Shown piece after piece: positions 6,201-39,200 of a DNA stretch of 64,000 nt (within the stretch, counting starts at the first letter, position 1; the number at the start of each line of letters is the position of its first letter). A program made the position numbers. The stretch comes from Octopus vulgaris (Eukaryota). The stretch lies in assembly GCA_951406725.2 (NCBI GenBank), contig OX597843.1, positions 19,158,001 through 19,222,000 of the forward strand, in the 5' to 3' direction.

Positions 6201-9200
6201 TCCAAAGTTTATAATTTATAGTAAAATTTCTTTATTTCTATAAATAATCTAGGGTTTAACAGGCATTTCTATCAACAATGGTCAACTGGTGGCCATTATG
6301 GCTTGGTCAATATTGTTATACTTTCTAATATACTAATATTAACTCTATTGTCTTCTGAATTGTCCATTTTATAAGCCATGCTAACCACGCTGGATATTTT
6401 CTGGAATTTTAGGAATATCAATATGTTTAATAGAATTATTATACAGCTAATCTTTCAATTGGGAATTAGGATGATGTCTTCTCTCAATTTAGATACATCA
6501 TTTCTAACGACTGACCGAGAGGATATTATGTAGACCCCTGTGTCACGGGTCAACAGTTCAAATCTAGCCCCAAGCACTGCACTACGTTCCTGGTAGAAAC
6601 ATCTCACCTTAGTAAATGTTTAACTAGATGGTAATCTTGAATTTTAACTGTCCCAATTCACAGGTCACCACTATGTCCTCTGAATCAGTTGATATTTGTT
6701 ATGTAGAGAGGAACGAAAGGATTTCAAATGAGAAATGCAATACTGTGATGTTCATGCCTTTCCAAATGATATTTGCAATGCAAAGGGAAATGAAAGGGTG
6801 ATCTGAAGGGGTTTTGTCCTAGGGAGGTTTTGTCTGGGTCCCATAAATTGTGACTCTTTTACCTAGCCAAAATTTTGACCTTATTACTGTGACTTTTTTC
6901 TTGTGATTTCATTACTGGTCACCAGTTTTACAATTCTTTCTGTATTCTATAACTGTCACATTTTAGAAACATTTCTCACGGCACCAGCACACTTTCCGTG
7001 AATTTTTTACAAGTCCAGCTAGTATTTTATTATTGTGAGATGTTCCTATGATCAATGGTCAACTGGTGACCAATGTGTTTTTTGACACTACTTTTATATT
7101 TTCTACAGTAGTACCACCACAGAATAGACTAACCTTCCTAAACCTCTTCTCTCAAGTAAGATATTCTACATAATCCTAACAATATATCAATTATCTTCTT
7201 TATCACTACCAGATGAAAATACTATTCTAGTTTTCTTTTTCTAGTCTTGTACCTGTACAAAATCAATGACAAGTATTTCTACTCTAACTTCTAGAATTCC
7301 GTAACCGACATTCTTCTAATTTGCAGCTTAATTCGAATGTCAATCAAGTCGGTCCTCCAAAGATCAAGCCACAATATCATGACACACCTCTTGAAATAAG
7401 ACAAAACATACACCTGATCTCTTTGTTGAGGGTTGCAGCCTGCAATCTTTTATTTTAACTGTCCCACATCACAGGTCAAGACTATGTCCTCTGAAGCAAG
7501 AAATATTTGGATGTCATTCATCTTCCTTAATGACTCTACCCAGGTGGAGCAGGGGATGATGACAGGTATCCCAAAAATGCTTCAGTATAATTGCACAAAA
7601 CTTCATCAACTACACATCCCTCACCCTACCGCATCAATGTTCCACAAATGACCGCTATGGGTTTGGACAACATTGTTATAATTGCTACAGTGGTACCAAA
7701 ACAAACGAAAGTAACCTTCCTGAACCTCTTTCTTCTACTAAGACATTCTGCATTATCCTATCTTTGTAGCCATTATTTTATTTAATTATTATCACTTGAC
7801 AATAATTCTTTTCTACCTTTGTCTTTCCTGTCTCATATCTCTGCCAAATCAATGGCAGGGCATTCTTCACTCACCTCTCGACTTCACTAACAAGCATCCT
7901 TCGTACTTCCTGCTTTATTGCAATATCAATCAAAATGGTTCTCCAAAGATCTACTTACAAAATCCTGACACACCCCATCAAGCAGGATGAACATACACCT
8001 GCTCTCTTTAATGAACTTTGCTAACGGTTATCTTGAAAGTCAACAGTTCCACAGAGCAAATCACCGGGATATTCTCTGAATGGAAAAACAGTTGAAGACA
8101 TTTGGATGTCATTCATCTTCCTTAATGACTCTACCCAGGTGGAACAGGGGATAATGACAGGTATCCCAAAAATGCTTCAATATAATTGCATAAAACTTTA
8201 TCAACTACACATCCCTCTCCCTACCCGCATTATTGCACTGAAAATACTTTAAATGCTACACAGGAAGCGAGACTCAAACAAACATAAAGAAGATCGGGAT
8301 AGACACCCAGCAGCAATCCCCAGATCTTGTATTTGCCCACAAGCTTTGTCTTATCTGTTGCTTGTAACCAATCCTCAGTCTGTGCCATCATCTGAATGCC
8401 TCTACTCTCACTCAACAACAGAGCTTAACATCGTCCGAAACATTTTACAGGACAGTCTTTAACATTTGGCATGGATTCTTCTGCAAATTGGAACTTCACT
8501 TGCTTCAGGGCATCTTTCATAAATGGTAGACTGAATTATTTATTTGCTTGAAACCGCTTTACTCACCAAGTACCTAGCCAGTCCAGAAGTAATTGCATAT
8601 CCTTATCGTCTGTTTTTAGCTTGGTTATGTCATTCGTTAAGGCCTTCTTATGCGATTGCCATTCGGATCAATCTACTGATCAATGTAACTTATCCATAAA
8701 AAGCACAAACTAAATGACGGACATTGTACAACCTACAGTAATTCCATTTCCAAGAAAATGCCAGTCTGTTGTGAAGTCTGCTGTTATTAGCCGTGTTATG
8801 AAACTGTTGCAGTGACTCCTAATTAGATCTGTCATCTTCTCCAGTTTATAAAATCGATTACTGCCATCAGCAATTTCTGTTGTAGAGAAACATAAGCAGG
8901 AACTGGATAGAGCCATACAACATTCAAATCTCTTTTATTCTCCATTTTCTCTCCTATGGCATTCCATGTGGAACATGGATGTTCCATATGCCCAGGAATT
9001 TAGAAGATTCTAGTCTTATGCACACTTTCAGTCCCATAGCAAAATTATTTTATAGGTTTGTAGCTGATCTTTTAACAAGTACATCTATGTAAATGATGCC
9101 GTCTACTATTACAATTAAAATGGGTCTCAAGTGGTCGCTTAGTTCTGCTTTAGCATCCTCTGGTAAGTAAACTCTGTCTGCCTTGCACCAGTCATCAACC

Positions 9201-36200: not shown

Positions 36201-39200
36201 ACTTGACAATAATTATTTTCTACTTTTGTCTTTCCTGTCTTATATCTCTGCCAAATCAATGGCATGGCATTCTTCACTCACCTCTCGACTTCACTAACAA
36301 GCATCCTTCGTACTTCCTCCTTTACTGCAATATCAATCAAAATGGTCCTCCAAAGATCTACTTACAAACACACACACAGACACCATTACACATTTATGCA
36401 TATAAACTTTAGATTAGCACGTTTTTTTTAATCCGCTAAATCCAAAAATAGTATTAGTTTTACAATTTGATCTTACAATATGTCACAAATTTAAGAGGGC
36501 AACCTAATTACACATCTTTTTTAGAAAATCAGTTGTCGTTGTCAAGAATGTCATATGATATGTCTTTATATATGCTTTTGACGTCAAAGAGCTCGAATTG
36601 AACGTGGAATAAACAGTTTAATGACAAATAATTAAATAATTTAATTTTACCGAAGAAAAAACATTTCTGAAGTTCTGAAATGTATATGATACAATAATAG
36701 TTTGACAACGTTTATGGCTTCAAAACCTCACACCAAGTCATCCAATGCATGATTGAAATCAATAAGGCTTACGTCTGTCTTGCAACTCACATTATTCAAG
36801 TAAATGTTCAAATTTCTTACTTATCGTTCCATTGACAGATTTTGATAAACGTTGTTTGAGAGCGGAATCTTGCTGGTTTTTGGCACAGAAACAGGAGTGT
36901 CACTGGCATATATGGTTTCTAAATACAGCCTGTCGACCTTTTCTTTATCTGGTATATCTGCCATGAAATAGGCATCTACCTTAATGATGCTAGTAAGCCG
37001 TACATCATGATATATCAAATTATCCAAGTCAGGTGTTTGTCATGTGTCCACTCACCCACAAGAATGATAAGTTTGTTATATTGGCTGAATGCCCCAGACT
37101 CTCGAATCAGATCAGTCGACTTGGGTTTAACTTGGGAAGAAGATGCTAATTTGAATTGCTTGGCACCTCAACAACTCAACATGTAGTTGATTAATGCAAC
37201 ACTGCATTCTGAATCGACATTGTGAATGGGAGCTCTCCTTAGTTTAGCTGAATCCATATTTGCTAGAGAATGGGGAGACGCTTTGATGATGTTTCCAAAA
37301 CCAAACACAACTCATTTTGGCTTCTGGAAACCAACCGCTAACCTTGGAAGAAGACTCGACAGTGCTTTTAACACCTCTGGCTTCAACTCGGTTGCAATAG
37401 CTTCAACAGCACAACATATATCTTCATCATATCTGATTTCCTGGAATCTGCTAGAAGATACGAAACTGAATGTAAGACTATGCACATTTAGCAATCGGTT
37501 TGGATCCACTGTAGAAAGGTCATTAGTAATTTATTTGAAAGCAGGTAAAATTTTAAGTAGGTTGTGCTTGTTGAAGTGGTGAGCGAAAGGAATGCTTCAA
37601 CAAGGTGCAGTCCAATCAGTACTCCTGCGCAACACAAGACATTGAGGAACACCATATCTATGGAAAACCATACAATACAAGCCAGTTGGTTTGTAACATT
37701 TCTGTATTTTGCCAAGTACGATACCATATCATTCACGTGGTACAAAGTTATTGCACAAAGCGAGAAGATTGAAGCATTCAGTCTTCAGGAAAACAGATTG
37801 ATTAAACCACGGTTGAATATGCTTGTCGAATTCACCAGCTTTGTTCCATGACTTGTAAACAAAACCATGATTGATTAATCTTATTATGCAATCAAGGGCC
37901 TGTTCAGGGGCACTGTATGAGCTCGATGTTGCATTTACAAGAAAACTCGAATAAATTTTGTCCCATTCAGTTGCGTTCTTGATCTCACTCCACAGTATAG
38001 TTATTAATCAATTTAACATGAGTGAAAGGTGAACATTGCAAAACAGATGCTCAGGTACCCGTTCTGTGCTGTTACATTCTCTTCAACCCCAACATCGAGT
38101 GTTTTAACTGCAATATTACTTGCTGCTTCTAGAAGCTAAAGTAGAGGCACTTTCAAGTCAGTCACATCATTTCTTGAGTCTGATGCTACAAGCAGAGTCG
38201 GCAGAGGTCTCTAGCGACCATTGATAGTAAAGTACTGGAGGGAGAAAGATCCAGCTCCGGTTTTAGATCCATCACCAGAATAAGTAACGACTGATTTCTT
38301 ATCAACTTTGGGATGATAAAAAAAAACCGAAGAAAGATGGAGAGAGAGAGAGAGAGGGAAAGAATGATAGAGAGAAATATAGAGGAGTGACGACAGGAGA
38401 GAGAGAAGATGGCGAAGTATAAAGGTGAGTGGACAGGTGATAGGATATGGGGTGTGTGTGAGTGAAGGACATACTGAGGGTAAGTTTAGATTTAATGAGT
38501 AGGCAAAGGTAGAGGGAAGGGGTATTGGGAGGATATATTTGAAGGAAGAGATGCACGAGGGACATATTGTGTGCAAGGGCTGGGCATAGACATAAAAGAC
38601 ATGCCTTTATGTCATTGGGTTTACTTTGATAAACAGGTCTTCACAAGCAAATGGNNNNNNNNNNNNNNNNNNNNNNNNNNNNNNNNNNNNNNNNNNNNNN
38701 NNNNNNNNNNNNNNNNNNNNNNNNNNNNNNNNNNNNNNNNNNNNNNNNNNNNNNTTATAATGATATCTATCTAGATTGTATATAATCTGGCAAAGGGATA
38801 TGTGACCGTCATTATAATGATATCTATCTAGATTGTATATAATCTGGCAAAGGGATATGTGACCGTCAATATAATGATATCTATGTAGATTGTATATAAT
38901 CTGGCAAAGGGATATGTGACCGTCATTATAATGATATCTATCTAGATTGTATATAATCTGGCAAAGGGATATGTGACCGTCATTATAATGATATCTATCT
39001 AGATTATGTATAATCTGTAAAAGGGATATGTGACCGTCATTATAATGATATCTGTCTAGATTGTATATAATCTGGCAAAGGGTTATGTGTCCGTCATTAT
39101 AATGATATCTGTCTAGATTGTATATAATCTGGCAAAGGGATATATGACTGTCATTATAATGATATCTATCTAGATTATATATAATCTGGCAAAGGGATAT

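Follow-up and report, generated by a model that had tools for sequence, protein, structure and literature searches.

In arthropod Dscam1, docking/selector RNA pairing makes the use of the variable exons mutually exclusive, and these exons encode portions of Ig domains; the exons of schistosome micro-exon genes (MEGs) are skipped in combinations, which varies the resulting proteins. In the human LPA gene, each unit of the repeat known as KIV-2 encodes a folded kringle domain. According to one report, 5.6-kb copy-number variation of LPA kringle IV type 2 generates more than 40 protein isoforms (PMC6314250), and another describes schistosome micro-exon genes with exons of 3-81 bp and introns of up to 5 kbp (bioRxiv 10.1101/2023.06.21.545858). 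Here, we analyze a stretch of 64,000 nucleotides from Octopus vulgaris (assembly GCA_951406725.2, contig OX597843.1, positions 19,158,001 to 19,222,000; hereafter the window), which contains the minus-strand 3' part of an ankyrin-RING-death-domain gene. Between the RING and the death domain of this gene lies a tandem array of ten copies of a 54-nt cassette. We estimate a probability of roughly 0.6 that these cassettes are young, usable and individually skippable coding exons of a linker that would be variable in length.

The array and its cassettes

Self-BLAST places the array at 7632..36368 on the minus strand, where 10.1 units of ~2.83 kb, each composed of intron and one 54-nt cassette exon, follow one another head-to-tail. 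Together with the pattern search below, this confirms the coordinates and counts given in the earlier note, a first reading of this DNA. The spacing from exon to exon is 2827-2895 nt, with introns of ~2.78 kb between the cassettes. Units U01-U09 share a pairwise identity of 95.1-97.4%, and the alignment of all ten units spans 2970 columns, 363 of them variable and 228 gapped; one unit measures 2895 nt versus ~2836 for the others. Tandem Repeats Finder is blind to the array because the longest period it considered was 500.

A search of the array on both strands for AG, 54 nt and GTRAGT in succession yields exactly ten sites, every one of them on the minus strand, while an eleventh site falls within an ordinary exon of the gene at 6186-6115. 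In transcript order, the minus-strand cassettes are located at 35903..35956 (U10, with the donor GTGAGT and phase 1 open), 33063..33116 (U09, the sole copy with the donor GTAAGT), 30232..30285 (U08, equal to the majority sequence), 27396..27449 (U07), 24501..24554 (U06, the most divergent copy and, in a profile search, the best match to cassettes of paralogues), 21664..21717 (U05), 18828..18881 (U04), 16001..16054 (U03), 13171..13224 (U02) and 10335..10388 (U01). The donor is GTGAGT in nine of the ten and GTAAGT in one. U05 and U02 are identical, and the ten copies thus comprise nine distinct sequences, as had been proposed. All copies likewise possess the AG, the GTRAGT donor, the exact length of 54 nt and the open frame that had been ascribed to them.

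The reading frame of the cassettes agrees with that of the gene. All ten copies read through in phase 1, stops interrupt the second frame in three copies and the third in all ten; the sole frame that is open throughout is therefore the phase demanded by the flanking exons. On the sense strand of the unit, one of three candidate donors is open in phase 1, and this is the cassette's own. Every cassette ends in A or G, and no exon here ends in T, so that no codon across a cassette junction can be a stop. Since each cassette is also symmetric, the inclusion of any subset would cause neither a frameshift nor a stop, and the proposal that no skipping combination creates either of these stands.

By translation, the ten cassettes consist of 24% D+E and 19% K+R (43% charged), 7% P and 9% hydrophobic residues and contain no cysteine, a predicted composition that fits a flexible spacer. 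A recurrent two-base dimorphism produces a D-K-E-D stretch in six copies and D-K-E-E in four, thereby making or removing a D-x-x-D pattern. D-x-x-D is a pattern of the kind that caspases cut.

The surrounding gene

Four ordinary minus-strand exons of the gene lie within the window (48376-48204, 44412-44270, 6186-6115, and 887-688 plus the stop codon). NCBI names the gene 'E3 ubiquitin-protein ligase MIB2-like', and its annotated product is P0001, a protein of 580 aa with the same name [Octopus vulgaris], which was the sole one of 12 candidates from a database of 5.8 billion clusters to carry this gene's last exon. Residues 1-408 of P0001, with the ankyrin repeats, map outside the window. True Mind bomb ligases (MIB1/MIB2) carry MIB/HERC2 and ZZ domains N-terminal of their ankyrin repeats. 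Neither domain occurs in the precomputed Pfam list of P0001; because this list is limited to ankyrin, RING and Death families, the name 'MIB2-like' is no more than an annotation label.

Upstream of the array, an exon at 48204..48376 (minus strand) matches approximately residues 409-466 of P0001 by tblastn; it begins in phase 0, leaves two spare bases at its end and is bounded by the acceptor ttttcag and the donor GTAAGT. It is followed by the 143-nt RING-finger exon at 44270..44412 (minus strand; Pfam zf-C3HC4_3, E 7.3e-10), which is 100% identical to residues 467-514 of P0001. The solved RINGs nearest to it are those of cIAP1/cIAP2 (E 6e-4) and XIAP, and the RING directly upstream of the linker is accordingly of the IAP-type C3HC4 class. 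This exon leaves one spare base (G) at its end, and the next exon must therefore begin in phase 1.

Downstream of the array, the first death-domain exon at 6115..6186 (minus strand, boundaries read from the sequence) comprises 72 nt and has phase 1 at both ends. In translation it is similar to segments of 25 aa that paralogues carry ahead of the match to the last exon; a Pfam search with its 23 aa alone gave no match. The last exon at 685..887 (minus strand) ends with the stop codon, is 100% identical to P0001 and matches positions 24-84 of the 86 in the Pfam Death profile (E 1.5e-9), a result that covers this exon alone, as the exons were searched singly. The nearest solved death domain is that of Fas (E 3e-5), followed by those of PIDD, RIPK1 and TRADD. 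The cassettes, the 72-nt exon and the last exon each open with two codon-completing bases, and the cassettes and the 72-nt exon each close with one spare base. The zf-C3HC4_3 and Death matches, together with phases that fit both neighbors, thus place the cassettes between the RING and the death domain, as anticipated.

Preservation and variation of the cassettes

The earlier note had judged that only 54 nt of each unit look functional, given that the cassettes stay intact while the surrounding unit accumulates indels. Comparison with the rest of the alignment confirms neither a preservation beyond chance nor a particular conservation of these 54 nt. Specifically, 41% of 62-column windows are free of gap columns, all eight splice-site-equivalent columns are invariant at 30% of positions, and 28% of positions pass the test that at most one of the eight varies and no gap occurs. 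Moreover, 68% of shuffled units (n=300) hold an exon-like segment of AG+3k+GTRAGT with an open frame. As 28-30% of positions and 68% of shuffled units do as well as the cassettes, the argument from preservation carries little weight, and we rejected the conservation of splice sites, length and frame as evidence of function.

Rather than being conserved, the cassette is the most variable part of the unit, ranking first among 2916 windows of 54 columns. Its variable columns number 16 of 54 versus 347 of 2916 elsewhere (a background of 12%; binomial P 3.9e-4), and its pi is 0.110 versus a background of 0.037-0.038. The lead over the next non-overlapping windows (0.094, 0.088 and 0.083) is not wide. 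The excess resides wholly in variants common to several copies: variants found in at least two copies occupy 12 of 54 cassette columns versus 146 of 2916 (a 4.4-fold excess, P 1.2e-5), while singletons are at background with 5 of 54 versus 211 of 2916 (P 0.35). The ratio of transitions to transversions, considered as a possible mark of a special mutation process in the exon, likewise equals the background (P 0.80) and was discarded as such. Singletons and this ratio at background levels indicate that the local mutation rate is normal. Older variant types thus persist in the exon while its flanks stay alike.

Over the 17 whole codons of the cassette, pN is 0.109 and pS is 0.043, the latter close to the intron pi of 0.037. 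Sixteen pairs of sites within the 54 nt show all four gametes, a sign of exchange among the copies. On either side of the cassette lie the two longest invariant runs of its neighborhood: the longest of the entire unit, with 59 columns, extends from +54 to +112 past the donor, and another, of 37 columns, covers -46 to -10 ahead of the acceptor. When columns are permuted, the longest run has a 95th percentile of 43. This distribution of variable and invariant columns suggests, short of proof, that selection sees the 54 nt as coding and favors copies that differ from one another.

Origin of the unit

At its downstream edge, the array borders on an old, diverged unit (5816..7639, minus strand, identified by blastn) that holds the first death-domain exon at the position of the cassette. 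Positions 5816-6327 match the cassette-bearing part of the unit with 61% identity over 534 nt (E 4e-31), and positions 7025-7639 match the part that follows with 73% (E 4e-114). Alignment A1 places both splice sites of the 72-nt exon, acceptor and donor, exactly on those of the cassette; 68-77 of 93-104 pairs are identical in the flanks and only 19-22 of 54 in the exon bodies, which do not align on their own. Judged by these homologous introns, the unit is an old duplicate of the segment that holds the first death-domain exon, and the shared position suggests that the cassette body itself may descend from this exon. Protein-level proof of such descent was sought and abandoned: a profile of 30 distinct 25-aa equivalents of the first exon scores the cassettes at -2 to -3, with top decoy scores of ~6.5. 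Because this profile misses the cassettes, the proposed origin rests on the DNA flanks.

These observations are best explained by a scenario that begins long ago with the duplication of a segment carrying the 72-nt, phase 1 to 1, first death-domain exon. The exon of the copy would then have turned into a 54-nt cassette of the same phase, and the cassette unit would recently have been amplified into a tandem series of ten 2.83-kb copies. A single cassette would encode a proline-containing module of 18 residues, charged and with few hydrophobic positions. Being skippable, these modules could lengthen and vary a flexible linker that connects an IAP-type RING to a death domain of the Fas/RIPK1 type, and selection would keep the copies unlike one another.

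Linker repeats in Octopus relatives

Relatives of the gene offer precedent for linkers of this kind. A phmmer search with the last exon against 1.84 billion representatives returned 55 proteins at E <=1e-3, 28 of which were examined in detail. A word-index search that took the C-terminal part of one relative as its query yielded 20 proteins, each with an Octopus name, 17 of them given in full as O. sinensis or O. vulgaris. Among 73 relatives collected, 29 pass the patterns for the RING and the first death-domain exon, and the linker figures cover those. Their linkers between RING and death domain span 18-135 aa and contain zero to six tandem repeats of 17 aa, which begin with a motif of the P-K-x-E-[DE]-K type.

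Annotated isoforms of two relatives differ by the cassettes they hold. The six isoforms of O. sinensis LOC115225502 (349, 332, 332, 325, 315 and 315 aa) differ exactly in this respect and carry from one to three or more cassettes at once, and isoforms X1 and X12 of an O. sinensis MIB2-like protein are identical except for 34 aa, which correspond to two cassettes. Alternative isoforms of this kind are proposed by the NCBI pipeline from transcript alignments. Copy-number change and splicing thus both have precedent among relatives, as judged from their sequences. The earlier proposal that the linker varies in length by copy number or by splicing is supported to this extent for either mode, while its further suggestion of a Dscam-like choice is not. 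When a profile built from 37 paralogue cassettes is run on the window translated in six frames (3394 open reading frames, ORFs), eight of the ten cassettes rank among its top 10 hits, in the right frame.

Some relatives depart from the common pattern. In P0011 and P0047, the linker repeats comprise 26 aa instead of 17 and, by eye, end in L-G...Q-x-[IV]-G like the first death-domain exon; a profile test of these repeats as full-length copies of the first exon gave no confirmation. The four-residue pattern C-P-[KR]-C recurs in many paralogue cassettes (P0008, P0023, P0026 and P0061-P0070), and the RING just upstream closes with the same pattern.

Weighing the interpretation

We infer that the cassettes are included in the mRNA of this gene, where they may be used combinatorially and may affect the reach or the partners of the protein. 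Several results weigh against the view of the cassettes as usable coding exons. In P0001, the last exon directly follows the RING exon, so that none of the ten cassettes is present, and the closest protein from O. sinensis, P0002, stops just past the RING. The profile of paralogue cassettes reaches a best E of only 0.16, over the first eight positions, with two cassettes outside its top 25. Conversely, a profile of the ten cassettes run against the 73 relatives yields nothing above shuffled decoys (top score 6.8 versus 5.6), and an exact search for the cassette motifs finds them in none of 57 relatives. The intact splice sites, length and frame are what an identity of 95-97% yields anyway. Furthermore, a pN/pS above 1 rests on ~10 synonymous sites, with ~13 nonsynonymous versus one synonymous difference, which is non-significant alone; the ten copies are non-independent, and adjacent variable sites may be single events. 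When events are counted by hand (~9), the cassette excess is still ~3-fold.

The annotated product is itself open to doubt. P0001 also lacks the 72-nt exon 6186-6115, so that its death domain begins at position 24 of the Pfam profile; this omission reflects either a truncated isoform or an annotation error. As leaving out this exon truncates the death domain, though paralogues hold the equivalent 25 residues, the model is an unreliable and probably weak witness against the use of the cassettes. Reads from ten near-identical exons would map ambiguously, and annotation could miss the cassettes in this way. The locus may thus serve as a warning that near-identical tandem exons can be lost in automatic annotation, along with a genuine exon of a domain. 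P0002, in turn, is near-identical to P0001 through the ankyrin part by eye, and tblastn gives 82.5% over the pre-RING exon and 77.6% over the RING exon; its first ~290 residues look unrelated to the family. It could be a recent paralogue, have a fast-evolving 3' end or represent a chimeric model.

The alternative that survives best is that the cassettes are pseudo-exons: the array would be a macrosatellite within an intron, its units carrying dead copies of a duplicated exon that are always skipped and in which the exon-like look of the founder has not yet decayed. This would explain why all ten are absent from P0001 and why P0002 of O. sinensis ends past the RING, and it would account for the intact sites, length and frame, which meet no more than the chance expectation derived above from the unit alignment and the shuffles. 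A neutral relic should, however, vary like its surroundings, yet the cassette is the most variable window of the unit, with a 4.4-fold excess of common variants and a normal level of singletons. The cassette is also in phase with the gene and shares its splice-site context with the genuine first death-domain exon; relatives use such cassettes, and the model that lacks them has also lost a genuine exon. On balance, we consider pseudo-exons unlikely, while taking them seriously.

The cassettes might instead form a fixed repeat, in which all ten are always included to give a constant linker of 180 residues without regulated choice. All ten share the same acceptor and donor context, introns of 2.8 kb pose no steric limit, and some paralogues hold five or six repeats in a row. 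The sole annotated model of the gene, however, contains none of them, and annotated isoforms of two paralogues differ by single cassettes, which makes obligatory inclusion improbable.

A mutually exclusive choice as in Dscam, with exactly one of the ten cassettes per mRNA, might be suggested by the nine sequences among ten copies and by the conserved intron stretches beside each exon, but it is very hard to reconcile with the lack of any complementarity longer than 13 nt between the non-array parts of the intron and the unit (E 0.06-0.16, at chance level), which leaves no candidate for docking/selector pairing, with an exon neighborhood that folds no better than shuffles (z -0.87), with a frame that multiple inclusion preserves so that nothing enforces exclusivity, and with paralogue isoforms that hold one, two or three cassettes together. 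That the copy number or the array itself stems from mis-assembly of the repeat is equally remote: long near-identical repeats are hard to assemble, and an N gap beside a minisatellite lies 2.3 kb from the end of the array, but the 363 variable and 228 gapped columns of 2970, the single unit of 2895 nt and the absence of any pair more than 97.4% alike are not what duplicated reads would give.

Implications

If the cassettes are used as coding exons, the linker would have been made from the duplicated exon of a folded domain and amplified as a 2.8-kb macrosatellite, with copies kept different while their introns stayed alike. Cephalopods are known for RNA-level diversification. The locus would then present a case of combinatorial cassette splicing in a cephalopod ligase family of the cell-death or immune type. 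A more far-reaching version, in which diversifying selection keeps the ten cassettes different and they are spliced combinatorially (up to 2^10 subsets) into a large repertoire of linkers, is in our estimation rather doubtful, about on a par with obligatory inclusion or slightly ahead of it. If it were true, such a repertoire would amount to a splicing-based generator of diversity inside a cell-death or innate-immune adaptor, one that arose as the death domain duplicated its own first exon over and over, and the D-x-x-D dimorphism might cause isoforms to differ in whether the ligase and the adaptor can be cut apart.

This ankyrin-RING-death-domain ligase family appears to be undescribed. In the titles and opening lines of abstracts covered by a literature search, nothing was found on this octopus family, on LOC115225502 or on tandem exon duplication in cephalopods. 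Among the matches listed for MIB2 or death domains in molluscs, the accessible text contains nothing on this architecture, and the available part of PMC11463336 mentions neither octopus nor RING.

Other features of the window

The units themselves show no further content that would explain the array. None holds an ORF longer than 121 aa, Rfam gives no match at the gathering score in the window and none at E <=1 in a unit, and no tRNA was found; the idea that an intron-hosted RNA gene, after the model of snoRNA host genes, is the reason for the array was dropped on account of this lack of an Rfam family, tRNA or long ORF. A higher-order periodicity of three units, which the exon types had suggested, is absent from the identity matrix of whole units.

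A 57-bp minisatellite at 38755..42886 (72.6 copies, 88% matches; Tandem Repeats Finder) occupies part of the intron that separates the RING exon from the array. It is abutted by the N gap at 38655-38754, which lies 2.3 kb off the end of the array. On the gene strand, frames of the minisatellite are open for up to 351 codons, and 57 is a multiple of 3. A 19-codon unit is open by chance often enough that we do not regard the minisatellite as coding. Tandem Repeats Finder also reports an (ATGT)n microsatellite (66.5 copies) at 50759-51024.

The introns of the window are full of remains of mobile elements, at 53000-57600 (plus strand), 1538-2737 (minus), 51675-52554 (minus), 59487-60762 (plus) and 46075-47504 (plus). 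Pfam identifies among them an endonuclease (E 5e-8) and a reverse transcriptase (E 3e-11) typical of LINEs, a second reverse-transcriptase fragment, a DDE_3 and HTH transposase of the Tc1/mariner type, a Pif1-type helicase domain as in Helitrons and an integrase zinc-binding domain. According to the ORF lists, all of these remains are interrupted by stops.

Comparison with known systems

The array shares with Dscam1 the presence of tandemly duplicated, diverged exons within one gene. The two differ in that docking/selector pairing was not found for the array and in that relatives of the octopus gene include several cassettes at once. The resemblance to KIV-2 of human LPA lies in a kilobase-scale tandem repeat inside a gene with exons in frame. 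Size variation in LPA, however, comes from copy number and not from splicing, whereas the octopus array is known from one assembly.

Short symmetric exons separated by long introns, here 54 nt from phase 1 to phase 1 with introns of ~2.78 kb, also link the gene to the schistosome MEGs. MEG proteins are secreted and consist almost wholly of unrelated micro-exons. The octopus gene, in contrast, combines ten near-identical micro-exons, confined to one linker and carried by a young array, with flanking exons of 143-203 nt that belong to a RING/death-domain protein of the intracellular type.

The closest counterparts are the Octopus ankyrin-RING-death-domain paralogues themselves (MIB2-like, 'ankyrin repeat protein RF_0381' and LOC115225502), which have the same domain order as the gene described here. 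Their linker, too, is composed of short tandem repeats, whose number varies between genes and, in steps of 17 aa, between isoforms. The cassettes of the window encode 18 aa without cysteine and are weakly similar to the 17-aa repeats of the paralogues, and, unlike in the paralogues, no annotated product of the gene holds them. With ten copies, however, the gene in the window carries more of these cassettes than any relative seen.

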